From a plasmid: 23,228 nucleotides of DNA. The DNA lies in the sequence record NZ_CP145108.1. One strand, given 5' to 3'. A model generated the notes under the pieces. The model saw only the letters and a list, made by a program, of their open reading frames with translations, ran no database searches and was not told the DNA's origin. The position numbers and the translations under genes were made by a program. Shown here piece after piece: positions 2,455-22,661 of this stretch; within the stretch, counting starts at the first letter, position 1, and the number at the start of each line of letters is the position of its first letter.

Positions 2455-3045
2455 GTGCTAACAGTTGGTAACTGGGCAACTCCCAAGTCTAATTCAGCTA
2501 ATTTAATGCGCAGTTCAGATGTCATGCCTACGGCATTTGAACAATTTTATGATTTTTCACACAATCGTCAATGGTTAGTTATTAAAACTAAGATGCTTAA
2601 CCGACTGTTTCAATTAAGCAAACAGCACAAATCAGGCTTAGTTCCTGATTTTTCATGGGTAACTCAACATAATGCAAACTCTGTAAAGGGTGCACATATT
2701 ACCAATAAATACGCCAATGATTACTACTATAATGCCTGTAGAGTTCCTATGCTGTTAGCCCAAAGTCATGACCCATTAGCACAAAAAACATTGACTTCAA
2801 TGTTGCACTTTTTTGCCAAGCATTCTACTGTCACAGCAGGATATACTATGAGCGGCAAACCACTCAATGACTATCAGTCCGCAAGTTTTAGTGCGCCCTT
2901 GCTAATGGCGACCAGTTGGTATCTCAATCAAGGGTACGATTCATTATTTTTTCATCAACAGTGGATTTTTGCTAAAGCAATGACTAAACACGATTATTAT
3001 AATGCTACCTTGACCATGTATGCGCTTATGTTTTCGAGCATTTAA
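2455..3045 (+). pseudogene. glycoside hydrolase family 8-like gene, C-terminal portion only (5' end removed by the IS)
   Basis: 196-aa ORF starts 60 bp after the IS inverted repeat. Motif YYYNACRVPMLLAQ resembles the conserved Y.YDA.RV..W block of GH8 enzymes (BcsZ/chitosanase type). The length is far short of the roughly 350-400 aa of complete GH8 proteins. Confidence 0.4.
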
Positions 3046-3498: not shown

Positions 3499-3629
3499 CT
3501 AACAAAGCGGTACTTTTTGTAATGCAACTTAAGTTAGTTGCTTTTTTTGTGATTCTGTTTATTTACAAATAGCATGTAATGTGGTATTTTATATATACAC
3601 AATATAATGCAAATAAAGGAGAATGCTTT

Positions 3630-4679
3630 ATGGATATTTTTAGCTTAGATTTAGGAAACAAACAGACCAAATTAAAAAGTAGCAAAGCTGAATATGTACT
3701 GCCTTCAAGATATTTAAACCAAGCAGACATGCCGATGTCAGTTGGCAATTCTACAATGAATAATGACCTACACACTTATTCAGTCCCTTTTAGCGACGAT
3801 AAGTACGTATGGGGTCGAGATATTGACCGACTTCACCTTGACGAATATTTAGCGGATACAATCATGTATGGTGCTCGATACAATAGTGAAGCATTTAAAT
3901 TACTAGCCAATTTTGCGCTGGGATTACTAGCAAGTGATTTCAAAGCGGCTAAAGATCAAGTTTTAGAAGTAGTCGTCACTGCTGGGCTTCCAACTGGAGA
4001 TTATGCTGACCAAGGACAATTAAAAGCTTTATTAAAAGTCTTAGAGGGCCAACATCAAGTTACTATTGACGATAAAATTGTGACGGTAAGAGTTCGTAAA
4101 GTCTATATTTTGCCTCAACCAATCGGCACCTTATATAACGAATTACTAGACGATGAAGGCTTTATCCAGAACAAAGATCTATTAGACGAAAAAGTCGGCA
4201 TTGTTGACGTAGGTGGTGGAACAATACTGATTGATACGATTTTAAACTTTGAGCTAAGTGGCAAAAACCGCCATCAATTTAATACCGGCGTAAATGATCT
4301 ATATGAAGCCATTGCCAACGGGATTAATGGTGATACTAGCCTTTATCAATTAGAAAAAGATTTACGAAAGGGAAACCAGCAACATCATTGGAGCTACCGA
4401 TTTTCTAAAAATCGTCAAGATGATATTACTGATTTGGTTTGCAAGGAAATTGACCGGTTTACCCGGCGCTTAGTTGCTAATGTAACTTCAACGTTAAAGA
4501 ACCTTAATAGTATTGATACTTTGTTCTTTACCGGTGGTGGAGCCAATTTGCTTAACCAAAAAATCTTGAATACTACTTTCACTAACGCAGTTATTGTTAA
4601 AAATACAGAAGTTGCTAATGTTAACGGCTTTTATAAGTACGGATTAAGTCAACAAGCTCAAAACGAAGGGAGCAAGTAA
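3630..4679 (+). CDS. actin-like plasmid segregation ATPase (ParM/StbA/Alp family)
   Basis: AAGGAG RBS at 3616-3621, ATG at 3630 (MDIFSLDLGNKQTK is phosphate-1 like). DVGGGT phosphate-2 motif and FFTGGGANLL adenosine motif of the actin/Hsp70 fold. Confidence 0.8.
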   Translation: MDIFSLDLGNKQTKLKSSKAEYVLPSRYLNQADMPMSVGNSTMNNDLHTYSVPFSDDKYVWGRDIDRLHLDEYLADTIMYGARYNSEAFKLLANFALGLLASDFKAAKDQVLEVVVTAGLPTGDYADQGQLKALLKVLEGQHQVTIDDKIVTVRVRKVYILPQPIGTLYNELLDDEGFIQNKDLLDEKVGIVDVGGGTILIDTILNFELSGKNRHQFNTGVNDLYEAIANGINGDTSLYQLEKDLRKGNQQHHWSYRFSKNRQDDITDLVCKEIDRFTRRLVANVTSTLKNLNSIDTLFFTGGGANLLNQKILNTTFTNAVIVKNTEVANVNGFYKYGLSQQAQNEGSK

Positions 4680-5662: not shown

Positions 5663-5854
5663 AGAAATTAAAAAAGTTGCCGAATGGGCAACCAAGAATA
5701 GACACATGCTGGTGAAACTACAAAGCCGATCACGACCAATGTTCGCTTTGTAATTCAGTTAGAGCATATCAGATTTGTATTTTAAAGCAAATCAAATGTT
5801 TTAGCAACTCTCTTTTGAGACAGCGTGTGTCAGTCAAGAAAGGGAGTTTTTATT

Positions 5855-6949
5855 ATGACACAATTTAATTTTATTCGATCACAAAATGCTTATGGAACTA
5901 AGTTTTTTCAACTACCACAGGTATTATTATATGGCGAAAAATATAAAGAACTAAGTGACAGTGCCAAATTAGGTTATGTAGTTTTGCGTGATCGTTTGGA
6001 ATACTCATTGCAAAATAATTGGATAGATGATGAAAATAGAGTGTACTTTATTTTTACCAATCATGAATTACAAAATTTATTTGGTTGGAGTGACCGAAAA
6101 ATATCAAAAGTAAAAAAGGAGTTGGAAGAAGCAGGACTGTTATTCCAAATTAATCAAGGATTTGATCCCAAGAAAAAGAAAAATTTACCCAATCGACTTT
6201 ACCTTGCTGATTTGGAAGTTACAGCAAAAGACGTGTATATTAAACAGGATTTTGCTAATAAAACGGCTGGAACCCTTGATAAAAGCGGACTAGCACAAAT
6301 GCAAGCTCGACAAGAAAAAATCAAAACGGCTGGAACCCTTGATAAAAGCGGACTAGCACAAATGCAAGCTCGACAAGAAACGGCTGGAACCCTTGATAAA
6401 AGCGGACTAGCACAAATGAGACACAATCTATACAATACTAATAACTTAGATACTAATAGATACAATATAGATACTCAAAAGTTGGACTTTTCCACAGTCA
6501 ATTTCTCACCAGCAGAACTAGAAAAGCAAAACCAGGATTTGGTGAACCATGCTAATGACTTCTTAACTGATGAAGACAGTGGCTTACCGGTTTTCTTAGA
6601 ACCAGAAGCTGTGCAACTACTTAGTTTTTGGTGCCGTACCCCACACCAAATGCGGCGCTTCATTGGCATTATCTTAAATGCTAAGTACCGAGTTGAGAAA
6701 GATCACAAAGATATTGGTGTCATAATCCCACTTGATGATGAAGAACTTAAACCGCTAATGACTAAAGCCTTGAGACGCTACTTTAACGTCCTAAGAAGTA
6801 ATGAGAAGCACATCAAGAACGTGGAAAATTACCTGTACGGCACCATGCAAAACCTATTTGGCGTTTGGTGGAATAAACAAGCGGCTAAAGAATATGCGGC
6901 CAAACACCCCGAAAAACAGAACACTGACAATGAGCCTTATTGGAATTAA
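5855..6949 (+). CDS. repA: RepA_N-family plasmid replication initiator
   Basis: AAAGGGAG RBS, ATG at 5855 (MTQFNF). N-terminal region SDSAKLGYVVLRDRLEYSLQNNWIDDENRVYF ... KVKKELEEAGLLFQ closely resembles the RepA_N domain of staphylococcal and lactobacillal theta plasmids, as recalled for pSK41 RepA. Confidence 0.9.
   Translation: MTQFNFIRSQNAYGTKFFQLPQVLLYGEKYKELSDSAKLGYVVLRDRLEYSLQNNWIDDENRVYFIFTNHELQNLFGWSDRKISKVKKELEEAGLLFQINQGFDPKKKKNLPNRLYLADLEVTAKDVYIKQDFANKTAGTLDKSGLAQMQARQEKIKTAGTLDKSGLAQMQARQETAGTLDKSGLAQMRHNLYNTNNLDTNRYNIDTQKLDFSTVNFSPAELEKQNQDLVNHANDFLTDEDSGLPVFLEPEAVQLLSFWCRTPHQMRRFIGIILNAKYRVEKDHKDIGVIIPLDDEELKPLMTKALRRYFNVLRSNEKHIKNVENYLYGTMQNLFGVWWNKQAAKEYAAKHPEKQNTDNEPYWN
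6260..6416 (+). repeat. tandem direct repeats (63, 63, 54 bp) inside repA; candidate origin iterons
   Basis: Unit aaaacggctggaacccttgataaaagcggactagcacaaatgcaagctcgacaagaa starts at 6260, 6323 and 6378. It encodes (K)TAGTLDKSGLAQMQARQE(KIK) x3. RepA_N plasmids carry their origin inside the rep coding sequence. Confidence 0.7.
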
Positions 6950-9228: not shown

Positions 9229-9313
9229 AATCGTGCTAAAATCCTGTATTAGAAGTCGCCGATGGCGACAACAAGGTCAAAACCCATAGAATCAAAGGAA
9301 GACGGTGACTGAC

Positions 9314-11377
9314 ATGGCAATATTCCACATGAGTTTTAGTAATATTAGTGCTGGTAAAGGACGCAGTGCGATTGCCAGTGCCGCTTATCGAAGTGGTGAA
9401 AAGCTATTTGATGATAAGGAAGGTCGCCACTATTTTTATGCCCGATCGATCATGCCAGAAAGCTTTATTTTGACGCCAAAAAATTCACCTGAATGGGCGA
9501 GTGATCGAGAGCAGTTGTGGAATGAAGTTGAAAAGAAAGATCGTAAATCAAACTCACGGTATGCAAAAGAGTTTAACGTGGCTTTACCGGTAGAATTAAG
9601 TGAATCCGAACAGAAAGAATTACTGACAAAATATGTGCAAGAAAATTTTGTTGATGAGGGCATGGTAGCCGACGTGGCAATTCATCGCGACCACCCAGAT
9701 AATCCGCACGCTCATGTGATGTTAACTAATCGGCCGTTTAATTCAGATGGAACATGGGGAATTAAGAGCAAAAAGCAATATATTTTAGATGAGAATGGCA
9801 ATAAAATGTATACCGGAACTAGCAAGTACCCTAAGAGTAGAAAGATACTGATGGTCGATTGGGATAAAAAAGAAAAAATAACTGAATGGCGGCACAATTG
9901 GGCGGCAAGTGTCAATCAGGCTTTAGAGCAAAAAAACATTCCTGATCGGATCAGTGAAAAATCATTTGTGGAACAGGGAATAGCTGACACACCAATGCAA
10001 CACGAGGGAATCAATAGCAAACGGCATGAAAGAAAGGCATTTAATCAACAAGTTAAGAACTATCGTAAGTCCAAAGCTGGCTATAAAAATATGCAGGAGA
10101 AAGTAGTTAATCGAGGCCACTTGGATAGCCTAAGTAAACACTTCTCGTTTAACGAGAAAAAAGTGGTCAAAGAGTTAAGCCACGAACTGAAAACTTATAT
10201 TAGTTTGGAAAGTTTAGATGATAAGCGGCGCATGCTATTTAATTGGAAAAACAGTACCTTAATTAAGCACGCTGTTGGTGAAGATATCACTAAGCAATTA
10301 TTGACGATTAACCAACAAGAAAGTTCACTAAAAAAAGCAGATGAACTCTTAAATAAAGTGGTTGATCGCACAACTAAAAAACTTTATCCAGAGCTTGATT
10401 TTGAACAGACAACCGCGGCTGAACAACGGGAATTGATTAAAGAAACTAATAGTGAACAAACGATTTTCAAAGGCAGTGAATTAAACGAACGTTTAATGAA
10501 TATTCGTGATGATTTATTGACCCGACAATTATTGACCTTTACCAAACGGCCATACGTTGGCTGGAAGTTATTAATGCAACAAGAAAAGGAAGTCAAAATC
10601 GAACTGAAATATACGCTGATGATTCATGACGATAACTTAGAAAGTCTAGAACACGTCGATCAAGGGTTACTAGAGAAATATTCACCAACCGAACAGCAAA
10701 AGATTACTCGCGCAGTCAAAGACCTACGGGCAATCATGGCCGTTAAGCAAGTCATTAAAACGCAATACCATGAAGTATTGAAAAGGGCCTTTCCCAAAGG
10801 CGATTTAGATGGATTGCCATTGATTAAACAGGAACAAGCCTATACAGCCGTGATGTACTATGATCCTGTTTTAAAGCCATGTCAGGCTGAAACAATTGAA
10901 CAGTGGCAAGCAAATCCACCACAGGTGTTCAGTCCCCAAGAACATCAACAAGGACTAGCTTATTTATCGGGACAGCTTAGCTTAGATCAGTTAGAAAATC
11001 ATCACTTACAACGGGTTTTAAAGCATGATGGCACTAAACAACTCTTTTTGGGTGAATGCAAAGCCGATCCGACGATTAAGAACAGTCAGATCGAGAAAAT
11101 CCAAAAGCAGTTAAAAGGGCAACAAGCCAAGGACGACCAGTATAGAAAAGTAAATATTGGACATTATCAACCGCTAAATTACAAGCCAGTTAGTCCAAGC
11201 TACTACTTAAAGACGGCCTTTAGTAACGCAATCATGACCGCCCTATATGCCCGTGATGAAGATTACGAACGGCAAAAACAGGCGCAAGGTTTAAAGGAGA
11301 CTGAGTGGGAAATGACGAAAAAGCAACGGCAACACCAAACTCGAAACCGGCATGAAGATGGGGGCATGCACTTGTAA
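9314..11377 (+). CDS. mobA: MobA/MobL-family relaxase
   Basis: [32 protein letters not shown]-terminus with the catalytic Tyr motif. HxDxxxPHAHVM histidine triad. Long coiled C-terminal domain. Confidence 0.9.
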
Positions 11378-11479: not shown

Positions 11480-11958
11480 AGCTGCCAGCCTTGTGTATGG
11501 TCTATCAAAGAGACCAGGTAAACAAAACCTTTAAGCCGGAACCCTATTTTGAACTAAATGCGGAAATTTTAGCTAATCAGCAAGAATTCGTCGCAAAATT
11601 AGACCCCTATCAGCGATTTAAAGACGAAACAGGGCTAATAACATTCATGCAAGCTAAACACGTTCAGAAAGGCTCACAGACTGGTTTAATCAAGGGCATT
11701 CAAAACAAGGCTAAAAAGCGTGCTAGTCCCCAACTATTCTCACTATCCAGTCTCCAGAGTGCCATGAATAAACGTTATCATGCCAGTGCCAGCCAGACTT
11801 TGGCGGCCATTCAGAGTTTATACGAAGACAAACTGCTCAGTTATCCCCGCACCGATTGTGCTTATATCACTGATGAAGAATTTGATTATTTAGTGGCTAA
11901 TCTGACGAAGTATCTGGGGTTGGTCTCTAAGAAGCTGTCCAAGATCTATGCTTTTTGA
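11480..11958 (+). pseudogene. type IA DNA topoisomerase (Topo III-like) internal fragment
   Basis: Contains LLSYPRTDCAYITDEEF, the active-site tyrosine block of type IA topoisomerases. Only about 155 codons are in frame. The 3' end abuts an IS. Confidence 0.55.
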
Positions 11959-11959
11959 T

Positions 11960-12800
11960 ATACTTCTATGTAAAAAGCGAGTTTAAGCTATGAAAAATTA
12001 TCCCAGCAATATTACTCGGCAACAATTTGAATTAATTCGACCAGCTTTAGAAAATTTTCGTAAGCGAACTAAGCCTCGAAAATATGACCTCTACGAGGTC
12101 TTCTGTGCGGTCCTATATGTCTTGAAAACCGGTTGCCAATGGCGTCAAGTCCCCGGTGATTTCCCAGAATGGCGGTCAGTTTACAACTATTACAAAATTT
12201 GGTCAACTAAAGCTGAGCCTACGGCTGATTCTTTATTGGAACAAGTTTTAAAAAAATTGTCATTGCTCGGCGAACTTACCAAGGACGTTCAGCTTTAACT
12301 TCCTTTATTATCGTTGACGCTCAGAGCGTCAAAAACACCGCTACTGCTGAAAACAAAGGTTACGACGCTGGTAAGAAAATCTCGGGGATTAAGCGCCATC
12401 TGGCAGTTGATATCAATGGCTTTCCGCAGGCCATTCACATGACGCGAGCGAACGTCTCTGATCGAGACGGGGCCAGTGCAATGATCGCTTTACATGCCAT
12501 GCATTTACGCCAGGTTCAAAATGTCTTAGTTGATGGTGGTTATTCAGGCGTTAATTTTCAGCTCGATGTAGCCAGTAATTTAAACGCAACCGTGCAGGTT
12601 GCGAAGCGCAATGAGTTGCATCGATTCGAAGTCATGCCCCAACGTTGGGTAGTCGAACGATCTTTTAGTTGGCTAGAGAATTGTCGGCGACTTTGGAAAA
12701 ATTGTGAGCGTCAATTAACCACCAGTCTGCAAATGGTCGTTTTAGCGTTTTTAGCACTATTACTTAAGAGATTTTAGACAGCTTCTAAGTATTTTGACAT
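11960..12800 (+). mobile_element. IS5-family (IS427/IS1031-like group) insertion sequence; boundaries approximate
   Basis: Contains a frameshifted transposase. The ends are inferred from the ORF limits and weak IR similarity only (atacttctatgtaaaa vs atacttagaagctgtctaaaa on the reverse complement). Confidence 0.5.
11990..12777 (+). CDS. IS5-family transposase expressed by programmed -1 frameshift
   Basis: orfA frame 2 (W..R/QWRQVPGDFP motif) ends at 12298. A_AAA_AAA slippery heptamer lies at 12250-12256. After a -1 shift, frame 1 runs on through KKIVIARR...FIIVDAQSVKNTATAENKGYDAGKKISGIKRHLAVD to the DDE C-terminus ending at 12777. Confidence 0.8.
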
Positions 12801-12957: not shown

Positions 12958-13116
12958 CGAACACCTGAATGTTTGTGTCTGTAATTCCCAGTAATTTAAG
13001 TGTATTATCTAGTTGAGACATCTATTCCTACCCCGCTTATCTTGAGTTTCGTCGCTTAAAGCATAGCACTAGGGAGGCTTAGATGCCTTTTTTTGTTATC
13101 AAAAAGGGCCTAGTAC
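12958..13116 (-). mobile_element. ISL3-family IS end remnant: terminal IR plus first 21 codons of the transposase
   Basis: Identical over about 150 bp to 23027-23174. Minus strand encodes [21 protein letters not shown], then loses frame. The copy at 23027 continues into an ISL3-type zinc-finger N-terminus. Confidence 0.65.
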
Positions 13117-13411
13117 TTTTGGAATGGAAATACTTTCCAACACCAAAAATTCTAGACCCAATGGTTCCACCACTAATCGTCAAGGTATCGTTCGCAATTT
13201 GCCAAGTGACACCTCCGTCAAGGGTGCCGCTGTTATTGTCCTCTGCTTGGTCTTGAGTGGCAATAGTTGTGATCGGTGATGTTTGGGTCGTGGAAGTGGG
13301 GCTGGTGGCAGCAAAAGCTGGCATTAGAACCCCTGTCAATAATAAAAATGAAGCCCCCACTGAAGCCGCTGCAATTATTAGTAATTGATTCAATTTATTC
13401 GTAAAAAACAA
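13079..13411 (-). pseudogene. secreted or surface protein gene, N-terminal part only, truncated by the ISL3 end
   Basis: Signal peptide (LIIAAASVGASFLLLTGVLMPAFA), then GVTWQIANDTLTISGGTI as in N-termini of LRR/BspA-type Gram-positive surface proteins. The last 7 codons and the stop come from IS sequence. Confidence 0.5.
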
Positions 13412-13658: not shown

Positions 13659-14462
13659 TTAATACCCCTCCGTTGTAAAGTACCAACGAACGTTGTCCCC
13701 ACTCTTAAGCTTCGTTAAGTTTGAAGCATGGTCAATAAATTTCTTGTTAACACTGAACATCCAACCGGAACCGGCCTTAACGTCATTTTCCTTGAGGCCG
13801 TTAATGCCGTTCACGTAAACGGAGGGGCCCGGAATATAACTAATCTTCAGGTTCGTTTGCTTTAAAATCGAAAACGCGTTGGCGCCCTTTTTAACGCGCA
13901 TCCGCTTCGAATAGAAAACTTTTTTGTATCCATCAACCGTTAAATGGATTTGAATTGTATTCTTAGCATTAGACGACTTTTTAGCCGCATGATGCGTATC
14001 CTGAACCACCTTGGTTTCTGCTTTGTGGTTAATTTTACCCAGCTTATCAGATTTAGGGGCATTTGACCGCTTAGTTTTAGCGACCTTGTTAGGACTTGCC
14101 TTTGCACTGGATCCGGTTGTCCGATTAGTTTTAGCGACCTTGTTAGGACTTGCCTTTGCACTGGATCCGGTTGTCCGATTAGGGCTTGTGCTTGATTGAG
14201 AACTAGCAGTTTGGGGCTTGTTGGCTGTTTTTTGAGCCCGCCTATCTGCTTTTGGTTTTGCTTTGCTTGCACCCTTTGCTTTTTGCTGGTGACTTGGCTG
14301 TTTAAGATGACTTGAACTGGTCGAACTTGAACTTGAAGAAGTCACTTGTTTAGAAGTTGTCGGCTTAGGGGCTGCGTCTCTCGATGAAATCACCTGTTGG
14401 GCACCAAAAGCGATTCCAATTGTGAGAATGAACGCAAGAATGAAGCCAATTGCTTTTTTCAT
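13659..14462 (-). CDS. N-terminally membrane-anchored protein with Ser/Thr/Lys-rich linker and C-terminal DUF4430-like domain
   Basis: N-terminal TM helix. Low-complexity basic linker with an 18-aa tandem repeat. C-terminal segment IHLTVDGYKK ... KKGANAFSILKQ ... YVNGINGLKENDVKAGSGWMFSVNKKFIDHASNLTKLKSGDNVRWYF has the DUF4430 pattern (related to the transcobalamin beta-domain). Confidence 0.65.
   Translation of the reverse strand: MKKAIGFILAFILTIGIAFGAQQVISSRDAAPKPTTSKQVTSSSSSSTSSSHLKQPSHQQKAKGASKAKPKADRRAQKTANKPQTASSQSSTSPNRTTGSSAKASPNKVAKTNRTTGSSAKASPNKVAKTKRSNAPKSDKLGKINHKAETKVVQDTHHAAKKSSNAKNTIQIHLTVDGYKKVFYSKRMRVKKGANAFSILKQTNLKISYIPGPSVYVNGINGLKENDVKAGSGWMFSVNKKFIDHASNLTKLKSGDNVRWYFTTEGY
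14071..14178. repeat. perfect tandem duplication, 2 x 54 bp
   Basis: ttagttttagcgaccttgttaggacttgcctttgcactggatccggttgtccga occurs at 14071 and again at 14125. It encodes NRTTGSSAKASPNKVAKT twice. Confidence 0.85.
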
Positions 14463-14496: not shown

Positions 14497-15543
14497 TTAA
14501 TTAATCGTGTAAACTGAACGATTCTTTAAAGCAGCTTTATAAGCGGCAACCGCTAAATTTACCTGACCGACACCATAGAGCTGAGTAGCTGCGTTTTTAA
14601 TTGAACCGGATTTATTGACATAGGTCAGCATTGCATAAAGCGGCGTCCTAGTTTGACTTGTTTTCATCGCCGTGTTATTCACATATTTCTTCATGCCAAA
14701 ATCATTTGATAGGGCAATAATTGCTTCAGCGGTTGAATTGGCATTTGGCGTTGTTTTGTCATTAAACGTGTAGCCAAATGCACCACTGGGCTGCACAATA
14801 CCAGTAAGAAATTTTTGCCCCTTCAGCAAGCTGTCCTTGACGTTAGTTGTATTAACCTTTCCTCGAGCCAGACCGGTTAGAACCATGCTGGTCGTGTCGG
14901 CATCCCTAACTCCTTGTTGGTTATTATACGTCCAACCGTGATTATTTAATTGAGCTTTCACTAGCCGAGCACTCAAGCTTGCTTTGCTAAACTTCGCTCC
15001 CTTTGGCTGCTTGAACTTTGAGCTCATCGAAATGGCAATCAGCACTTGTGCCTGGGCACTTGTCGTTTGTTTGGAAACACTTGTCCGGTACAACTTGGTT
15101 ACCAGATTGATTCCCTTTTTGTGGCCATATGGCTTATAATCTCTAGCGTTGAGCCCCATCGCCTGAACGGCCATCACGGCATTGGCCATTGTTGCAGCAG
15201 GGGTTGTCTTTTTGATTACCAAGTTTTTTCGCAGCAACGTTTTTTCCTTGGTATTAAATTTATAACCGTTTCCCTTGAGCCCTAACAGAAAGTCAGAGTA
15301 CCCCGCAGCCGCACCAGTATCAGGATTGAGTTTCTTACTAAAAATAGAACTGCTTTGACCGGAAAGTCCGGTCTTATTTTCTTTAATCATCTTTTTGGCA
15401 TAGGAATAAGTACGGGCAATTCTGCTGTGAATGGTGCTGGTACTAGCCTTCCTAATTGACGCAGCGTTGGTAGTTGTTGAGAGCGTCAAAGCGGCGATAA
15501 CCAAAGTTGCAGAAGTCAAGACTGATTTTATATATTTATTCAT
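14497..15543 (-). CDS. secreted protein, tentatively alpha/alpha-toroid (prenyltransferase/squalene-oxidase-repeat-like) fold
   Basis: AAGGAG RBS. Signal peptide ending TTTNAAS. Repeated G(W/F)xY ... (D/N)(T/A)TSM(V/A)L(T/A)GL-type segments (NNHGWTYNNQQGVRDADTTSMVLTGL; SGAFGYTFNDKTTPNANSTAEAIIAL) are reminiscent of terpene-cyclase-like repeats. N-terminal 60 aa are paralogous to the N-terminus of the next gene. Confidence 0.45.
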   Translation of the reverse strand: MNKYIKSVLTSATLVIAALTLSTTTNAASIRKASTSTIHSRIARTYSYAKKMIKENKTGLSGQSSSIFSKKLNPDTGAAAGYSDFLLGLKGNGYKFNTKEKTLLRKNLVIKKTTPAATMANAVMAVQAMGLNARDYKPYGHKKGINLVTKLYRTSVSKQTTSAQAQVLIAISMSSKFKQPKGAKFSKASLSARLVKAQLNNHGWTYNNQQGVRDADTTSMVLTGLARGKVNTTNVKDSLLKGQKFLTGIVQPSGAFGYTFNDKTTPNANSTAEAIIALSNDFGMKKYVNNTAMKTSQTRTPLYAMLTYVNKSGSIKNAATQLYGVGQVNLAVAAYKAALKNRSVYTIN

Positions 15544-15630: not shown

Positions 15631-17133
15631 TTACTTATTGTAGGTCATCGAAATTGAATCGCCATCTTTCAAAGTATAAACACCCATCGATGAACCAGGT
15701 TCGGTGCCATTAACTGAGTAGAGCCAGCCAGTCATCGTACCGGCCGGACCGGCGTTAAACCCATTGATCCCGGTAACATAAGCGGTCGCCCCGGATCCTG
15801 TATAGGTTAAAGCTAACCCTTTCTGTTGGGCAAAGGCTTGTAACGCATCAAACGCAGTGGCTCCCTTCTTAACTTTGACGCTGCCACTTGCGATGGTCGC
15901 CCCATCGGCATGAATACTAATAGTGGTTGTGATGGTTTTAGCATCGTTTGATGGCGTAACAGGATTTGTGGGTGCCACTGGCAAAGTTGGCGTGGCACTA
16001 GGTGAATTATTAGTAGTTGTGGTTGTCCCTGTGGCTGTCCCCGTCGTTGCCGTCGGCTTAGAGCTTGTCGTCGTTGTCGTAGTCGCTGTTGACCCTGAGT
16101 TAGTCGGTGGGGTACTCGTTGACGTCCCTGTGGTTGTGGCCGTAGGTGTGCTTGGACGAGTATTTTGGGAGCTCTTCTTGATCTTAGTAGCCAAGATGAG
16201 CTTCTTGTTAGCAGTGATGTAGCGGCCATTTGTAAGTTGCATCCGGTTGGAACGCCCATAGTTAACAACTTTTCTGACGCTTAATGACGCATTCTTTTTA
16301 ACGTGGCGCTTCTTGCTCGTTAAGTTAACCTTACCATACTCGTTGATTCCCTTAGGATTGATGACTTTAATGCGGGTCACCTTTGCGGAATAGTAGGCGT
16401 GGGCAAAATACTTTGAACCAGAAAGCGTATAACCGGTTTTGCCTGAATTCATGTCCTTTACTCGATAGATCGCATGGCCCTGTTTATTAGTTTGTTGGCT
16501 AATCACCAGAAACATTGGGCGATTAACTCGAGCTCGCTTTGGATAGGTCTTGATCAGACTTGATTTAGTAAAATTCGAGTTTCTATATAATTTAATGGTT
16601 GTCAGTGCATATACAACTGACCGCTGTCTTGCCTTTTTAACGGGCTTCTTGGAAACAGTCGGCTTACTTGTCGGCGAACTACTGGATGAAGAAGCAGGTG
16701 TCGCTGCTGAGGAACTCGCTGCAGTAGAAGAACTGGCAGGATTATTTGCATCCTTTACAATGTCAGCAACTAAATTCTTACCATTCACATTAGTTGGATC
16801 TTTGCCGATTGCCACCAAACCATTGACGGCAGAAACATCAGAGATCCCGTTTAACCCTTGACTGCCACCACTGAGAAAGTCGTTATTCTTAAGAATTGAT
16901 TTGTAAGCATATTGAGCCTGCAAATCAGTAATGCCGTTGTCCCCAAACACTAAACATGTGGCATCCCAAGCATCAATTTGGGACCCTCGTTGTGTGATCT
17001 CCGTTAACCCAGTGGAAATTGCCGAATTGACGTCTGATGCTGTATCAGCCCTGGCTGAATTACCACCACTGAAAAATATCAGAAAAATCCCTAATACAAT
17101 TGAAAGCCAATATAGAAATTGTTTTCTTTTCAC
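15631..17133 (-). CDS. secreted multidomain surface protein: N-terminal module, Ser/Thr-rich linkers, basic cell-wall-binding-like middle domain, C-terminal DUF4430-like domain
   Basis: GTG start with GGGGAG RBS. Signal peptide. Poly-S/T tracts. Lys/Arg-rich middle (RVKDMNSGKTGYTLSGSKYFAHAYY ...). C-terminus IHADGATIASGSVKVKKGATAFDALQ ... YVTGINGFNAGPAGTMTGWLYSVNGTEPGSSMGVYTLKDGDSISMTY matches the DUF4430 pattern. Confidence 0.7.
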   Translation of the reverse strand: MKRKQFLYWLSIVLGIFLIFFSGGNSARADTASDVNSAISTGLTEITQRGSQIDAWDATCLVFGDNGITDLQAQYAYKSILKNNDFLSGGSQGLNGISDVSAVNGLVAIGKDPTNVNGKNLVADIVKDANNPASSSTAASSSAATPASSSSSSPTSKPTVSKKPVKKARQRSVVYALTTIKLYRNSNFTKSSLIKTYPKRARVNRPMFLVISQQTNKQGHAIYRVKDMNSGKTGYTLSGSKYFAHAYYSAKVTRIKVINPKGINEYGKVNLTSKKRHVKKNASLSVRKVVNYGRSNRMQLTNGRYITANKKLILATKIKKSSQNTRPSTPTATTTGTSTSTPPTNSGSTATTTTTTSSKPTATTGTATGTTTTTNNSPSATPTLPVAPTNPVTPSNDAKTITTTISIHADGATIASGSVKVKKGATAFDALQAFAQQKGLALTYTGSGATAYVTGINGFNAGPAGTMTGWLYSVNGTEPGSSMGVYTLKDGDSISMTYNK

Positions 17134-17208
17134 TACTGAACGCTCCCCAAAACAAATTTAACGGTCGTTAACCGCTATTAATGCTGGACTGGTTAGACTT
17201 TCTGCAAC

Positions 17209-17241
17209 ACAAAAAAGCCTAGCTAGTACCCTAGCTAGAGC
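17209..17241 (-). terminator. intrinsic terminator-like hairpin inside the 5' leader; candidate riboswitch expression platform
   Basis: Minus strand reads ctagctag ggta ctagctag followed by gcTTTTTTgtg. It sits between the aptamer and the GTG start at 17133. Confidence 0.55.
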
Positions 17242-17353
17242 CATCTTCTATCATTAATAACTAACGTCCGACATTTTTGGGCAGACTAATCCCGGAAAGT
17301 TTATTATTAATTGACAAAGTCGACCCTAAGAAACTTTGCAATCAGTATAATAA

Positions 17354-17480
17354 GCGTCTCCTGACTTGATCTCATCCCCAAATGTCTTCTTCCCGGCTTT
17401 AGCCAGTGAGTTGCGACATTTCAGTCAATCTTACAGTAGCGAAGGGGCTGTAAAGGCTTTTCACCTTTTTCCTGTTCATT
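17354..17480 (-). ncRNA. cobalamin (AdoCbl-type) riboswitch aptamer
   Basis: Minus strand carries, in canonical order: AACAGGAAAAAGGUGAAAAGCC, CAGCCCCUUCGCUACUGUAAG, CACUGG, GGGAAG, and B12-box-like AAGUCAGGAGACGC. These match the conserved GGUGnAAnUCC / CnGCCCCCGCnACUGU / GCCACUG / GGGAAGGC / AGYCMGGAGAC blocks of the cobalamin riboswitch. The 3' end of the B12 box departs from CCUGCC. Confidence 0.7.
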
Positions 17481-17499
17481 ATACTTTCTAACATTAATC

Positions 17500-17535
17500 A
17501 TTATAGCATGGCGCGCGTTTGTTTAGAAGGGGGCT
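17500..17535 (-). promoter_or_regulatory. candidate promoter for the riboswitch-led operon
   Basis: Minus strand has TGcTATAAT (extended -10, plus coordinates 17500-17508) with a weak TTCTAA -35 seventeen bp upstream. Confidence 0.4.
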
Positions 17536-17544
17536 ACGAAGTCC

Positions 17545-18396
17545 TTGTACATCTATCGGAAATACGCTTTTAAAATTCGCCAGATAGCCCCGCAATCATC
17601 CGCGCAATCTCGGGTTGACCTCAGTCGCATTCAGGCCTCACCACAAGTGCTGGGATTAATCCTCAGCTACTATGTGAACTATGGCATCTCCGCTGCCAAG
17701 ACTGCCGCGTTAATGTACGACATCCATGGCATCAAGATTTCCAAGCAAACCATTCTCAATTACGCACAAGCCGTGGCGGCCAATGTTCGACCCTTCCTGG
17801 ATAATTATCCGTATCAGCTTTCCAGCCAATTGGTGGGTGACGAAACTTATCTGCGCGTGAAAGGAAAATGGCACTATCTGTTCTACTTCTATGACGTGAA
17901 CAAAAAAATTATCCTGGCAGATTACGTGACCCCCAAGCGAACCACTGAATCAGCGTGCATCGCGATCTATCAAGTCCTCAAAAAGTATCAAGTGATTCCT
18001 GAGAACCTGCGGTTCACGGTTGACGATAATCCCATCTATCGAGTGGCCAGACTATATTATGCACATCAGGAAGGCATCAACTTCGACCTTAATATCGTTA
18101 AAGGCTTAACCAACGAAACCGAGGTGGCGAAGGAATATCGCCCCGCCAAGCAAACCATTGAACGCTTAAATCGCTCACTGAAAGCTAATTATCGCCCAAT
18201 GGGGGGCTTTAAGTCAGCCAGCGGCTCTATCACTTACGTGACGCTGTATTCACTCTGCCATAATTTTTTACGGCCCCATCAAAGTCTGGGATACCATCCA
18301 CCAGTTGAAGTTCCTGAATTAACGGGACTTACCCGCATGCCAGACAAGTGGTTGAGACTCATCAAACTCGCTCAAGAACAGCTACCAATTGCTTGA
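17545..18396 (+). CDS. DDE transposase, distant IS6-family-like
   Basis: Blockwise resemblance to IS26/IS257 Tnp: YGIS HTH region, VGDETYLRVKGKWHYLFYFYD (compare HMDETYVKVNGRWAYLYRAVD), FTVDDNP, QTIERLNRSLK, GFKS. Longer than typical IS6 Tnp. Start codon uncertain. High-GC gene. Confidence 0.55.
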   Translation: MYIYRKYAFKIRQIAPQSSAQSRVDLSRIQASPQVLGLILSYYVNYGISAAKTAALMYDIHGIKISKQTILNYAQAVAANVRPFLDNYPYQLSSQLVGDETYLRVKGKWHYLFYFYDVNKKIILADYVTPKRTTESACIAIYQVLKKYQVIPENLRFTVDDNPIYRVARLYYAHQEGINFDLNIVKGLTNETEVAKEYRPAKQTIERLNRSLKANYRPMGGFKSASGSITYVTLYSLCHNFLRPHQSLGYHPPVEVPELTGLTRMPDKWLRLIKLAQEQLPIA

Positions 18397-18804
18397 TTTT
18401 GGTAATTGGAGCCCGGTGGTTCTTTATCGTCAAATGGCGGTAGCGAACACTTGACAAGCCGAAAAGCCAATGGGTTAAACTTAAATGACCCGAGGCTTAT
18501 TTAAGTGGCCTTGATTTCGTCTAACCATCGCCTCGGCACCGCTGAGCCAACCCATTGGCCGGCTTGTCAGGTGCATTTGACGATTACGACCACGTAGTAG
18601 ACTGCAAACCTGAATGGAAACTATATTAGAATCTACTTTTTCATGGAACTTTGGACATTACCGATTTCCTAACGTTTATAGTTTAGCACTGGAAAACCCA
18701 AAAGGTGTCTGACAGCACTTGGTATTAGCCACCATACAAAAAATCCCCATTCAGTCCGAAAACTGATGAGGATCGTCACGCAAAACTTATTAATTTAACC
18801 ATGA

Positions 18805-18933
18805 TTACTTCTGTTGGCCTTTCAATACCGAATTCCAGAAAAGACGTGAATTCAAATCATCTTTCAAGGTTCCTGAACGGCGATTCTTTCTTTCAGTGGT
18901 TCTTGCAAATAAATTCTTCAAAGTCTTTGGCAT
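18805..18933 (-). CDS. small basic ORF of 42 aa with a strong Shine-Dalgarno sequence; function unknown
   Basis: Minus strand AAGGAGG 8 nt upstream of ATG (MPKTLKNLFARTTERKNRRSGTLKDDLNSRLFWNSVLKGQQK). Intergenic location between the IS6-like gene and the ECF operon. Confidence 0.3.
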   Translation of the reverse strand: MPKTLKNLFARTTERKNRRSGTLKDDLNSRLFWNSVLKGQQK

Positions 18934-19395
18934 AAAACATTCCTCCTTGGTCAATTCTATGAAGCTTATCAATCTTCTCTCTACTAAGTAGTATAGCGCT
19001 ACTGTCGACCAGGGAGATAGTAATATGCTTATAAAATTTACCAAAGCAAAGCCCCGACACGGATGACTTTTTCCGCCTCGGGATGTTGCTTGAAGGATGT
19101 TGCAGCTTTTGCTTTCAATGATTTTCAGAAAGTTATTTACGTGTTAACCACCTCGCTTGTTCGGATGAACCCGTATAAATGACAGCTTAGCAGGTCACGG
19201 TAAATTTAGTGTAAAAATGGTGTAAAAAGGCTGTACATAATATCCAAAAGGTGATAAATCAGTTCGCAAATTTCACCATTTAAAAACGCCTCAAAATAAT
19301 ACTAGCCACCACACAAGATATGCCGTTTACCACCCTTGGCAACGATGATATACTGTTGGAAGGGCTTACTAACCCTTAGAAAGTCGGGATTTTCC

Positions 19396-20367
19396 ATGAC
19401 ACACACCCCAATCAAGATGACGTTTTTTTCGCAGCTTCATCCAGTAGCGCTCACGCTGTACTTTACTGAGCTGATCGTCTGCCTCCTGCTGTTTAATCAC
19501 GTGGCGGTCGCGGTGGCTGAGTTCATCGCGCTCACGATCACAGCCACCTACTACCTTGGCGGCCGAAAGACGGCGCGCCAACTGAAATACGCCGTTTCAT
19601 TTCTATTAATGATTCTATTTTTCAATACGCTCCTCAATCAAAAGTTTCCGCCGATTCTTTGGCATTTCAAATGGGGCATTCTGACGTTCAAATTTTCGTA
19701 TCCGGCATTTCTGTACGGCATTGCGATGGCAATTGTCCTGATCGCAATGCTGTTTGTTTTTTCAGTCCTAAACGCGGTTCTGACCCCCAGCAAGCTGATC
19801 TACGTGTTCTCGCCGATTGTGCCCCGGCTGGCAGTACTGGTCACCATTTCGTTTACGCTGGTCACCAGCTTCACCGATAGGCTCAAACGGATTTTGCGCC
19901 TGCAAAAAACCCGCAACGTCGACGTGGTTAATGGATCATTGAAGACCCGCACCCAAAAGACGCTCCACATCTTCGAAATTCTTCTGCAGGACGCCCTGTC
20001 TTCTGCGATGGAAACCGCCAATTTAATGGACGCCCGCGGATTTGGCGCCGCCAAGCGGACCCACTACCGCTCGTATCACTGGCAGTTTAGTGACCTGCTG
20101 TTCATCACGATTGCCACCGTCATGCTAGTTGCAACTATCGGCGTCCGGATTCTTTCAATGGGCACCAGTCGTTCAGTCGCCAATTTCACCACCATTTTTA
20201 CGCCGGGCGATACTTGGCCCATCGTCGTCACGGCACTCCTATTCTTACTACCATTAATCTCAGAGGGGTCTATCGTTCATGCAAAAATTAGCTACCGTGA
20301 CCCATCTCACGTTCACCTATCCCGATCAATCAACCCCCGTTCTGGACGACGTCAACTTCACCATTGA
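19396..20367 (+). CDS. ecfT: ECF transporter transmembrane (T) component, CbiQ/EcfT family; start uncertain
   Basis: Multi-TM protein with the EcfT signature Ala-Arg-Gly region (ETANLMDARGFG). The longest ORF starts at 19336, the ATG at 19396 is used here, and 19420 is also possible. The C-terminal 30 codons overlap the ATPase gene. Confidence 0.7.
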   Translation: MTHTPIKMTFFSQLHPVALTLYFTELIVCLLLFNHVAVAVAEFIALTITATYYLGGRKTARQLKYAVSFLLMILFFNTLLNQKFPPILWHFKWGILTFKFSYPAFLYGIAMAIVLIAMLFVFSVLNAVLTPSKLIYVFSPIVPRLAVLVTISFTLVTSFTDRLKRILRLQKTRNVDVVNGSLKTRTQKTLHIFEILLQDALSSAMETANLMDARGFGAAKRTHYRSYHWQFSDLLFITIATVMLVATIGVRILSMGTSRSVANFTTIFTPGDTWPIVVTALLFLLPLISEGSIVHAKISYRDPSHVHLSRSINPRSGRRQLHH

Positions 20368-21943
20368 CCCCGGCGATTTTATTGTGATTGCCGGTAATAC
20401 CGGCAGTGGCAAGACGACCCTGCTTAACCATTTGAAAAGGGAGCTCATGCCCAAAGGAGCCCGAACTGGTGACGTTCAAATTGCCGAAACACCGGTTGCT
20501 GACATGCCGAAGTTGGTGAGTGCCCAAACCGTCGGCTATGTGGCCCAAGATCCACAAACCCAGCCGGTGATGGCAACGGTGATCGAAGAACTGGCCTTCC
20601 CATTAGAAAATATTGGCTGTCCCAGCAATGAAATCGAACGCCGGATTACCGAACTGGCAAATTTCTTAGGTTTGGATCAAAACCTCGATCGCCAAATACA
20701 TCAATTATCCGGCGGCCAGCTTCAGTTGGTAAACCTGGCTTCGGTTCTCATCTTGCGCCCAAAATTAATTTTACTGGACGAACCCACGTCCCAGTTGGAT
20801 CCGCTGACCGCTCAGCATTTTCTCACCGTTTTAGGGCGGATTAATCAAGAATTAGGGATTACAATTATGTTGACTGAACACCGGCTGAGCACGGTAGCAG
20901 CCATGGCCAACCGGATGATTCTCCTGCAGGATTACCACCTGACCTTTGACGGTGATCCCCACAGCGGCTTGGCAAAAATGGCCACTGATGCCCACTTGAC
21001 CTATTTCGTACCGTCAATTCCCAAGCTCTTCTTAGATCAACAGATTCGAACCTCCCAATTGCCGATTTCAGTAGCCGATGCCCAGTCGGCGATTCGGACT
21101 CACCATCTTCAATTTCAATCAGTGACGACCGGCGGCAAGGTTGCGCAATTACCCCCAGCCGAAAAACCAATTCTAACCGTCAATAACATTTCCTTTAGCT
21201 TCGACGGCCAACATAACGTCCTCCATCACCTGAACCTGGCGATTAATCCCGGTACGTGGTTGGCAATTGTCGGCAAAAACGGCTCCGGCAAATCAACCCT
21301 GTTAACGCTGATTTGTGGACTAATGACGCCGCAGCACGGCAAAATTCGTTTCGTCCACCAGTTAGTTTGGAAAATGGCCATTAACCAGCGAATGGCCAAA
21401 CTGGCATTTCTATCGCAAACTCCCCGTCTCCAATTTACAGCCGATACCGTTCGTGAGGAGCTGGAAGTTCAGGCGGCTGAATTACGGTTGCCAGACGCTA
21501 AGGCCCAAGTTGACCATATGATTAATCAATTTCATTTGAACCGTATTGAGAAACAAAATCCATTTGACATTAGTGGCGGCCAACAACAGCTGGTTGGATT
21601 AGCAATCGCACTGATGGCGACCCCTGATCTGTTGGTTCTGGACGAGCCAACCAAGGGACTGGATCCCTACACCAAAATTCAGGTGGGCAACCTGCTGAAA
21701 CAGTACCAACAAGCCGGTATGACCATTGTGATTGCCAGCCACGACATGGAATTCTGTGCTAAATTTGCCGACAAATGCACGTTTATGTTTGATGGCCATC
21801 TCAACACGCTGCTTGCCACGCAATCATTTTTTGCCGATAACTTTTTCTTCACCACGCCAATTAACCGGATTGCCCGTGATCAGGTTAAGGACGCCCTACT
21901 GCCAGTCGATCTGAAGCTGGCGAACCATCCAGAAAGGGGGTGA
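20279..21943 (+). CDS. ecfA: fused tandem ECF ATPase (EcfA-EcfA' in one polypeptide)
   Basis: Two complete ABC cassettes. Walker A GNTGSGKTT and GKNGSGKST. Signatures LSGGQLQ and ISGGQQQ. Walker B/D-loops LLDEPTSQLD and VLDEPTKGLD. AGAGGGG RBS. Confidence 0.85.
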   Translation: MQKLATVTHLTFTYPDQSTPVLDDVNFTIDPGDFIVIAGNTGSGKTTLLNHLKRELMPKGARTGDVQIAETPVADMPKLVSAQTVGYVAQDPQTQPVMATVIEELAFPLENIGCPSNEIERRITELANFLGLDQNLDRQIHQLSGGQLQLVNLASVLILRPKLILLDEPTSQLDPLTAQHFLTVLGRINQELGITIMLTEHRLSTVAAMANRMILLQDYHLTFDGDPHSGLAKMATDAHLTYFVPSIPKLFLDQQIRTSQLPISVADAQSAIRTHHLQFQSVTTGGKVAQLPPAEKPILTVNNISFSFDGQHNVLHHLNLAINPGTWLAIVGKNGSGKSTLLTLICGLMTPQHGKIRFVHQLVWKMAINQRMAKLAFLSQTPRLQFTADTVREELEVQAAELRLPDAKAQVDHMINQFHLNRIEKQNPFDISGGQQQLVGLAIALMATPDLLVLDEPTKGLDPYTKIQVGNLLKQYQQAGMTIVIASHDMEFCAKFADKCTFMFDGHLNTLLATQSFFADNFFFTTPINRIARDQVKDALLPVDLKLANHPERG

Positions 21944-21950
21944 GTGTTAC

Positions 21951-22661
21951 TTGAAACAATCTTCGTTACTCAACCGGTATCGGTTATTAATTGCGTTACT
22001 GTTAATGTTTATTTTTCTGCTATTCATTGTCTTATTGAAGGGAAAGCACTACCTATTATTTAGCTTTATGTGCCTAATCTGTAGCCTTTTACCCGCGTAC
22101 TGGCGCTTCGAACACGATCCAATCAGCACCCAAACGTTGATGTTTGTCGCCGTTTTGATCGCGTTGGCGGTTGCCACCCGGGTCCCACTGGGCGCCATTC
22201 CTGGTGTGCAGGGAGCCAGCTTCGTCGTAATTCTAAGCGGTGTCAGTCTCGGCCCGGAACTGGGCTTTATCACAGGATCTACCACGGCACTGGTTTCCAA
22301 CATGTTTATGGGTCAAGGACCATGGACGCCTTGGCAGATGGTCGCCTGGGGCTTAATGGGGTTAACCGCTGGCCTCTTCATGAAGGCCCGATTGTCCCAT
22401 AGTCTGATTTTTATGATCGTGTTTGCCTGCGTCTGGGGCTATTTGTTTGGCTGGATCATGGACCTCTGGTACGCCCTGGCCTACGTATCACCGCTGACCA
22501 TCAAGAGTTTTATCTTGGCTTTTGCGGCCAGTTTCTTTCCATTTGACACGTTCCACGCAGCATCCAATGCCTTTCTCATCGCGCTATTTTACAAACCATG
22601 GGAGAAGCTGTTTCACCGCTTAGTCACCAAATACAATATTTTACCGGATAAAAACCAATAG
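21951..22661 (+). CDS. ECF transporter substrate-specific (S) component
   Basis: 236-aa, six-TM small integral membrane protein immediately after ecfA (TTG start, GGGGTG RBS). General S-component architecture. Specificity cannot be assigned from sequence alone. Confidence 0.55.
   Translation: MKQSSLLNRYRLLIALLLMFIFLLFIVLLKGKHYLLFSFMCLICSLLPAYWRFEHDPISTQTLMFVAVLIALAVATRVPLGAIPGVQGASFVVILSGVSLGPELGFITGSTTALVSNMFMGQGPWTPWQMVAWGLMGLTAGLFMKARLSHSLIFMIVFACVWGYLFGWIMDLWYALAYVSPLTIKSFILAFAASFFPFDTFHAASNAFLIALFYKPWEKLFHRLVTKYNILPDKNQ

Follow-up and report, generated by a model that had tools for sequence, protein, structure and literature searches.

What controls the operon of predicted surface-protein genes carried on the minus strand of the plasmid recorded as NZ_CP145108.1, and to which compound is that control likely to respond? 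We addressed this question for a stretch of 23,228 nucleotides (hereafter referred to as the window, meaning the whole stretch analysed), for which an earlier note, made from the sequence alone, had proposed a cobalamin riboswitch with a terminator-type expression platform on the minus strand, at 17209-17535. Cobalamin riboswitches are among the most widespread riboswitch classes. Comparison of the entire window with all 4227 families of Rfam 15 (cmscan) yielded a single match above a gathering threshold, RF00174 (Cobalamin), at 17503..17336 on the minus strand. This match covers model positions 1-189 of 189, with 72.4 bits (E 2.3e-16). The covariance-model check that the note had suggested therefore gave a score more than twice the gathering score (31.5) and well clear of any rejection; the match is far above chance and the identity of the element as a cobalamin riboswitch is genuine. 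The leader very probably contains a class-I-type riboswitch (adenosylcobalamin (AdoCbl) type, with a P6 extension) that works as an OFF switch through transcription termination, and it most likely stops the transcription of a secreted, transcobalamin-like B12-capture operon when B12 is sufficient.

Aptamer and related leaders

Every hallmark block listed in the earlier note was located in the sequence of the minus strand, on which all the leader elements described here lie: the L4 T-loop GGUGAAAAGCC (about 17466..17456), the block CAGCCCCUUCGCUACUGUAAG (17450..17430), the CACUGG...GGGAAG block of the P6 extension (17407..17389) and the B12 box AAGUCAGGAGACG (17367..17355), the last of these also recognised from the Rfam alignment and from covariation. 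The aptamer, taken as the extent of the RF00174 match (17336..17503), is closed by P1, in which covariation pairs 17484..17476 (GUAUAAUGA) with 17353..17345 (UUAUUAUAC). The L5 loop, CCCCUUCG (17440..17447), was assigned from its place in the Rfam alignment and is the proposed kissing partner of L13, described below. The element shares with RF00174 (clan CL00101) the L4 T-loop, the CCCC of L5, the four-way junction, the P6 extension, the B12 box core AGUCAGGAGAC, the closure of the aptamer by P1 and the covarying helices. It differs from the family in that P1 is very AU-rich and in that the second P3 pair is C-G (consensus G-C), such that the B12 box ends in GACG, not GACC.

A search of 58 genomic loci and three plasmids with nhmmer identified the window leader in 16 loci, comprising plasmid-type copies and a chromosomal clade in which the 348-aa protein encoded by the second gene of the operon is 68-74% identical. 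The leader was shared only by loci with this 348-aa protein at an identity of at least 68%, and its arrangement with the operon recurs in 15 related loci. RF00174 was confirmed in every related leader scanned (59-74 bits), with six further loci having the orthologous operon downstream. No RF00174 match was found within 6 kb of seven loci encoding 348-aa paralogues at about 50% identity, or within 6 kb of an L. senioris locus encoding a 348-aa homologue with 89% identity. Riboswitch control is limited to one clade of the 348-aa gene family.

Thirteen leaders were aligned, consisting of that of the window and 12 from Lentilactobacillus, Levilactobacillus and Lactobacillus plasmids and chromosomes, and the pairing statistics given below refer to this alignment. 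Within the aptamer, 10 of the 42 predicted pairs had changes on both sides. P1 and P3 together were 99.3% paired, with five covarying pairs, and strong covariation was evident from the P1 variants of the different leaders (GUAUAAU/AUUAUAC, GCAUAAU/GUUAUGC, GUACCAU/AUGGUGC and ACAUCAU/AUGAUGU). A hand-specified structure comprising P1, P3, P13, the c:c' helix and the terminator (the last three being described below) was tested on the same alignment: 99.1% of the cells were paired, versus 22-49% when the partners were slid, and nine pairs were changed on both sides, a result reached by 0/500 shuffles.

The 3' end of the B12 box had been described as atypical (GACGCUU rather than GACCUGCC) and as the possible mark of a variant or damaged element. 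The deviation is real: AAGUCAGGAGAC, at 17367..17356 on the 3' side of the aptamer, agrees with the B12 box consensus (about AGYCMGGAGACCKGCC), and the GCUU continuation departs from it. In the RF00174 consensus, the GG of aGGGAA pairs with the CC of GACCu. The present leader family has CGGAA on the 5' side and GACG on the 3' side, the consensus G-C pair being flipped to C-G in 12 of the 13 leaders (columns 64/185, CG in 12 sequences and a non-pair in one; columns 65/184, GC in all 13). In the window, C17356 pairs with G17472 and G17355 faces position 17473, which is a C in 12/12 relatives and an A here; this window-specific substitution leaves an A.G mismatch in place of the second P3 pair. 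The description as atypical therefore holds and that as damaged does not, since the pair is compensated in 12 of the 13 leaders; the GACG end is a family-wide flipped pair, with no damage or loss.

The aptamer is preceded by a putative promoter that is also conserved. An extended -10 element, TGcTATAAT (17500..17508), has the form TGnTATAAT in all 13 leaders and may act as the promoter, with a predicted start about 7 nt downstream; as ATGCTATAAT or GTGTTATAAT, the element is invariant or almost so in 13/13. The weak -35 element TTCTAA (17528..17523) still lies within conserved DNA. Homology between the window and the L. kefiri plasmid pDH5 extends up to 17544, and the promoter region is thus retained, because this homology resumes at 17544.

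Expression platform and proposed switching

Downstream of the aptamer, a hairpin formed by GC(U)CUAGCUAG, the loop GGUA and CUAGCUAGGC occupies 17241..17217 and is directly followed by UUUUUU (17216..17211). It was found independently by a terminator scan, as CUAGCUAG-GGUA-CUAGCUAG, with a 9-10 bp stem, a 4-nt loop and six U. The ribosome-binding site (RBS), GGGGAG, is located at 17148..17143, and the GTG start codon of gene 1, which aligns with ATG in the relatives, at 17133..17131. The earlier note had placed the hairpin about 110 nt beyond the B12 box and the RBS and GTG about 75 nt further on, close to the spacings obtained here (about 113 nt, and about 78 nt between the U run and GTG). 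The nine pairs of the hairpin were 98.9% paired, and three were changed on both sides. Its arms differ by clade (CUAGCUAG/CUAGCUAG versus CUGGCUAG/CUAGCCAG; in the chromosomal clade GCCCUGGCUAG/CUAGCCAGGGC, as against GCUCUAGCUAG/CUAGCUAGGC in the window), with pairing always kept and 6-7 U always next. This retention of hairpin and U run in diverged relatives, with compensatory changes, bears out the terminator-type platform proposed from the sequence, and the hairpin with its six U has the features of an intrinsic terminator, at which termination is predicted. Its interpretation as a mere palindrome duplication was rejected in view of the covariation in the chromosomal leaders. A second, weak terminator-like hairpin, UAGCGGUUAACGACCGUUA followed by AAUUUGUUUU (17159..17177; terminator scan and alignment), lies 10 nt upstream of the RBS and is kept only in the plasmid-type leaders, not in the chromosomal relatives.

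The earlier note, correct as to the terminator, had overlooked the actual candidate for the switching element, a hairpin directly 3' of P1 that we identify as P13/L13 because of its position and its loop. It spans 17310..17342 and consists of AUUGCAAAGU (17342..17333), L13 UUCUUAGGGUCG (17332..17321) and ACUUUG-U-CAAU (17320..17310). Nine of its 10 pairs are invariant and one covaries (UA 6, CG 5, UG 1), and L13 has the same sequence in 13/13 leaders, as does the CCCC of L5. L5 (17447..17440) and L13 can form the pairing CCC(U):(A)GGG, with both sides invariant and no covariation; a kissing interaction between the two loops is suggested because the AGGG of L13 is complementary to the CCCC of L5. 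The stretch TTGCAAAGTTT, 3' of the aptamer, resembles a terminal repeat of the IS6 family, and truncation of the expression platform by an insertion sequence (IS) was considered; this reading was rejected, since TTGCAAAGTTT does not vary among the chromosomal relatives and makes up the P13 5' arm.

Beyond P13, alignment and folding identified a c:c' helix (within 17253..17309) between UAAUAAU (17309..17303) and GUUAUUA (17261..17255), with seven pairs, 98.9% pairing and one-sided changes that keep the pairing; it encloses a spacer hairpin of variable sequence. The folds suggest that this helix is common to both states and may be the nucleation site of the antiterminator. The antiterminator of the predicted ligand-free state (17235..17329), derived in the same way, has a 5' strand consisting of UUAGGGUCG of L13, the P13 3' arm and c (17329..17303), and a 3' strand consisting of c', the linker and the terminator 5' arm UGGCUCUAG (17261..17235), this arm being CGGCCCUGG in the chromosomal copies. 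Its 25 pairs were formed in 92.9% of the alignment cells, with one-sided changes only.

The leader was folded, as the earlier note had proposed, and an alternative between terminator and antiterminator does exist in silico. When P13 was forced and L13 kept single-stranded, as a mimic of the kissing interaction, P13, c:c' and the complete terminator were formed in 10/10 leaders with an intact terminator. When L13 was free to pair, an antiterminator-like state was favoured by 5-7 kcal/mol in the chromosomal relatives. Minimum-energy prefix folds of full transcripts were computed for the window and six other diverse leaders. Just after synthesis of P13, both P1 and P13 were formed in 7/7; once the terminator 5' arm had emerged, P1 was kept, P13 was dissolved and the GGGUCG of L13 was paired to the terminator 5' arm, also in 7/7. 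At this decision point, the mutually exclusive antiterminator characteristic of metE-type platforms (see below) was thus the minimum-energy fold in all seven leaders.

These folds are consistent with the following sequence of events. Transcription would start at the conserved extended -10 promoter (17508..17500); the aptamer would fold first, with P1 formed by 17484..17476 and 17353..17345, and P13 (17342..17310) directly after it. We infer that the aptamer binds a corrinoid, whereupon L5 (CCCC, 17447..17444) would kiss L13 (AGGG, 17327..17324) and lock P13. With P13 locked, only c:c' and the terminator (17241..17217 plus six U) could form downstream, and RNA polymerase would stop ahead of the GTG at 17133. 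In the absence of corrinoid, P13 would be unlocked, and the emerging c', linker and terminator 5' arm would invade it from the c:c' helix. The invading strand would pair with the P13 3' arm and L13 to form the antiterminator, sequestering the terminator 5' arm, and the operon would be transcribed. On this model, the same L13 nucleotides would seem to have two uses, one in the kissing loop and one in the antiterminator. The secreted or anchored transcobalamin-like proteins, with the adjacent ECF-CbrT-type transporter, would scavenge corrinoids, resulting in negative feedback on B12 uptake.

Several sister leaders have lost parts of this platform. A deletion of 13-14 nt, aligned to window positions 17239..17226, removes one terminator arm in L. 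brevis p47-5 (locus L002, 10700-11122), L. kefiranofaciens (L003, 10790-11216) and a contig of L. parakefiri (L004, 1238-1670), and probably arose by slippage between two copies of CTAGCTAG; in a scaffold of L. helveticus, the terminator stem is shortened. Copies with either change are predicted to read through constitutively. The L. brevis p47-5 leader also lacks CCGGGAAGAA (aligned to about 17398..17389), which is the 3' strand of the P6-extension helix and includes the GGGAAG block; its RF00174 score falls to 59 bits, and this aptamer looks to be decaying.

Weighing of the alternatives

Several observations weigh against an OFF switch that works by termination in the window. The C-to-A change at 17473 is private to this leader among the 13 and breaks a P3 pair in the window alone, and a segment that bears a transposase has taken the place of the DNA upstream of -45; either the mismatch or the replacement could weaken the function of this copy. 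Neither the antiterminator nor the L5-L13 kissing pairs have two-sided covariation in the 13 leaders, which for the antiterminator follows from the invariance of L13. The minimum-energy fold of the full-length window leader pairs the 3' strand of P1 with AAUAAUAA, downstream of P13; the register of this pairing ('extended P13') differs between clades, and it was never the minimum-energy structure in the prefix folds at the decision point. Finally, the complete platform of the window favours P13 with the terminator (-38.2 kcal/mol) over the forced antiterminator (-32.3 kcal/mol), and the decision to read through must therefore be kinetic. Kinetic control is usual for transcriptional riboswitches.

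If the changes in and around this leader were taken as signs of decay, the aptamer of this plasmid would be a relic that no longer regulates, with the operon constitutively terminated or constitutively expressed. The private substitution at 17473, the decay of the sister leaders (both the terminator-arm deletion in the three copies named above and the loss of CCGGGAAGAA in one of them) and the replacement of 506 bp of the pDH5 intergenic region by 17545-19108 are all in line with such a relic. However, the Rfam score is scarcely altered by the A at 17473 (72.4 bits, as against 73.4 and 71.9 in copies with C), and loss of function through this mismatch is for that reason considered unlikely, albeit possible; a single A.G mismatch in a 2-bp helix beside a 9-bp P1 is, moreover, often tolerated. 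The promoter, P1, L5, P13/L13, c:c', the terminator and the RBS are all intact and identical to those of pDH5, and we consider the relic an unlikely description of this copy. It is less probable still, to the point of being very doubtful, that control is mainly translational, through sequestration of the RBS, or dependent on Rho or RNase, with the hairpin and U run incidental and derived, for example, from duplication of a palindrome. CTAGCTAG is itself palindromic, and an origin by tandem duplication is possible, one copy being missing from some sister plasmids; a second hairpin (17177..17159) is also present beside the RBS. Nevertheless, the hairpin and U run are kept with compensatory changes where the arms are not palindromic, in the GCCCUGGCUAG/CUAGCCAGGGC arms of the chromosomal relatives, from which the second hairpin is missing, and no conserved anti-RBS sequence was seen among the aligned leaders. 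Conservation is lacking in the 55-80 nt between the terminator and the start codon, and translational control is unsupported for this reason.

Activating corrinoid riboswitches do exist, and in that of Alkalihalobacillus halodurans cobT P13 is itself the antiterminator (PMC10327014). An ON switch of this kind can be set aside almost entirely for the window leader, because P13 (17342..17310) has no base in common with the terminator (17241..17217), from which 68 nt separate it; the complete terminator was obtained in 10/10 leaders with an intact terminator when P13 was forced, and the regulated genes appear to serve uptake, a type of function that B12 normally represses. Termination in response to a bound corrinoid is the reading that we consider very probable.

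The regulated operon, its surroundings and known systems

The riboswitch sits in the 5' leader of an operon encoding two DUF4430 proteins, beside a CbrT-type energy-coupling factor (ECF) transporter. Gene 1 (15631..17133, minus strand) encodes a protein of 500 aa with an N-terminal signal or anchor sequence, DUF5776 (1.9e-18) and a C-terminal DUF4430 (5.3e-13). Gene 2 (14497..15543, minus strand) encodes the secreted 348-aa protein, annotated in RefSeq as 'fucose-binding lectin II', and gene 3 (13659..14462, minus strand) a protein of 267 aa with an anchor at its N-terminus, a low-complexity linker and DUF4430 at its C-terminus (5.4e-15). Gene 4 (13079..13411, minus strand), for a hypothetical protein of 110 aa that had no match in the family searches, keeps the same position in related plasmids and is possibly the last gene of the operon. 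The description of these genes as a surface-protein operon was reasonable, given the N-terminal signal and anchor sequences and the DUF5776 and DUF4430 domains. The gene 1 product is shorter in the window than in related plasmids (500 versus about 740-810 aa), an 831-bp in-frame block (9682-10512 of the pDH5 locus) being missing, with the junction near 16732-16743; this difference is consistent with a change in copy number of the DUF5776 or low-complexity repeats.

The DUF4430 (PF14478) matches of genes 1 and 3 both exceed the cut-off. This domain is found at the C-terminus of vertebrate transcobalamins (PMC4350170). An AlphaFold2 model of the gene 1 DUF4430 domain (predicted local distance difference test (pLDDT) 72), of moderate confidence and built on a two-sequence alignment (a homologue search with the isolated domain gave one protein), had as its best match the beta domain of human transcobalamin (5NO0; template-modelling (TM) scores 0.74/0.71, 22% identity), and its top 14 matches in the PDB were all transcobalamin, haptocorrin or intrinsic factor. 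For gene 2, which had no Pfam or NCBIfam match, an (alpha/alpha)6 barrel was confidently predicted (pLDDT 83), with Foldseek matches to terpene cyclases, GH105 enzymes and transcobalamin/intrinsic factor (4ZRP_B; E 5e-4, TMq 0.52). The barrel match is unspecific, with scores for terpene cyclases and GH105 enzymes that equal those for transcobalamin (E about 2-5e-4), and the likeness of this model to the transcobalamin alpha domain is suggestive only. Neither the 348-aa protein nor gene 3 nor the two-sequence DUF4430 profile had a significant match when searched by sequence against the PDB. The 348-aa family is confined to the heterofermentative lactobacilli Lentilactobacillus, Levilactobacillus and Secundilactobacillus, and 'fucose-binding lectin II' seems to be a misannotation.

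An ECF transporter is encoded on the plus strand at 19471..22661, with a T component, a fused double ATPase (ECF ATPase TIGR04520, 2e-97) and a CbrT-like S component (21951..22661; match to CbrT, PDB 6FNP_A, E 1.8e-9). This operon diverges from that of the riboswitch and is outside its control, and no RNA family was found in its upstream region (18300-19450) with Rfam, even at E values up to 1. The riboswitch operon, with a CbrT-type transporter adjoining it, is read most economically as a surface system for corrinoid capture that B12 represses. More tentatively, and slightly on the doubtful side of the balance, we envisage a mobile, plasmid-borne 'split transcobalamin', in which an extracellular barrel and two anchored DUF4430 proteins would hand corrinoids captured at the surface to ECF-CbrT. 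Such a system would spread among the lactobacilli of kefir, beer and sourdough, with the 13-nt terminator-arm deletions as de-repressed, constitutive scavengers.

On L. kefiri pDH5, the riboswitch operon and the ECF operon face each other across a single intergenic region, 506 bp of which are replaced in the window by 17545-19108 (1.56 kb). This segment contains an open reading frame for a DDE-type transposase (17545..18396) and a hypothetical gene, with weak IS6/IS240 matches below the family cut-offs; about 40 bp separate its junction from the riboswitch -10 element downstream, and it also adjoins ECF operons in four other plasmids. The location on a plasmid, also proposed in the earlier note, is supported by genes for a replication initiator (RepA_N, 5825-6949), a partition protein similar to ParM (3579-4679) and a relaxase (MobQ, 9305-11377), all identified in family searches, by zeta-toxin and resolvase genes and by 92-99% identity to Lactobacillaceae plasmids. 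The window matches hundreds of plasmids of Lactiplantibacillus, Levilactobacillus, Pediococcus and Lentilactobacillus. Truncated genes, for a topoisomerase (155 aa; 11491-11958, plus strand), an IS5-family transposase (112 aa; 12439-12777, plus strand) and a GH8 protein (196 aa; 2455-3045, plus strand), indicate a heavily rearranged mosaic. A related L. plantarum plasmid (NZ_CP013155.2) has part of the same module together with nrdJ, for the AdoCbl-dependent ribonucleotide reductase, and such plasmids seem to carry B12-dependent and B12-uptake genes along together.

For riboswitch biology, this is a routine case, with a mechanism that is already known and an element that any Rfam-based annotation pipeline would find. 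The leader links to B12 an operon with poor annotation ('fucose-binding lectin II' and 'DUF4430' in RefSeq), and points to possible transcobalamin-like surface capture in Gram-positive food and gut lactobacilli needing AdoCbl. No description of the operon was found in the literature on DUF4430, transcobalamin-like bacterial proteins and Lentilactobacillus riboswitches. The 13 diverged copies provide a clean natural example of the recently dissected logic of P13, antiterminator and terminator, and the sister plasmids that have lost the terminator or part of the aptamer are ready-made natural regulatory mutants.

The closest known counterpart of the platform is that of Priestia megaterium metE, in which the kissing loop stabilises P13, the 3' side of which otherwise pairs with the terminator's 5' side as an antiterminator, a logic demonstrated by compensatory mutagenesis (PMC10327014). 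The spacers between P13 and the terminator range from 0 to 82 nt among 38 riboswitches (PMC10327014). The window leader resembles metE in the position of P13 directly after the aptamer, the complementarity of L13 to L5 and a destabilising bulge in P13. It differs in that its antiterminator also recruits bases of L13 (GGGUCG), and in that the proposed kissing pairs are CCC(U):(A)GGG rather than CCG:CGG. The encoded proteins share with the eukaryotic carriers transcobalamin, intrinsic factor and haptocorrin the predicted beta-domain fold of DUF4430 and, in the 348-aa protein, a predicted (alpha/alpha)6 barrel, but the two halves belong to different polypeptides, the beta-like half occurs in two proteins and identity is 13-22%. 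Likewise, the neighbouring transporter has, like the ECF-CbrT B12 transporter of Lactobacillus delbrueckii (PDB 6FNP), a CbrT-matching S component with a T component and ATPases, whereas its ATPase, of 554 aa, is a fused A1A2 protein and the riboswitch governs extracellular binding proteins instead.

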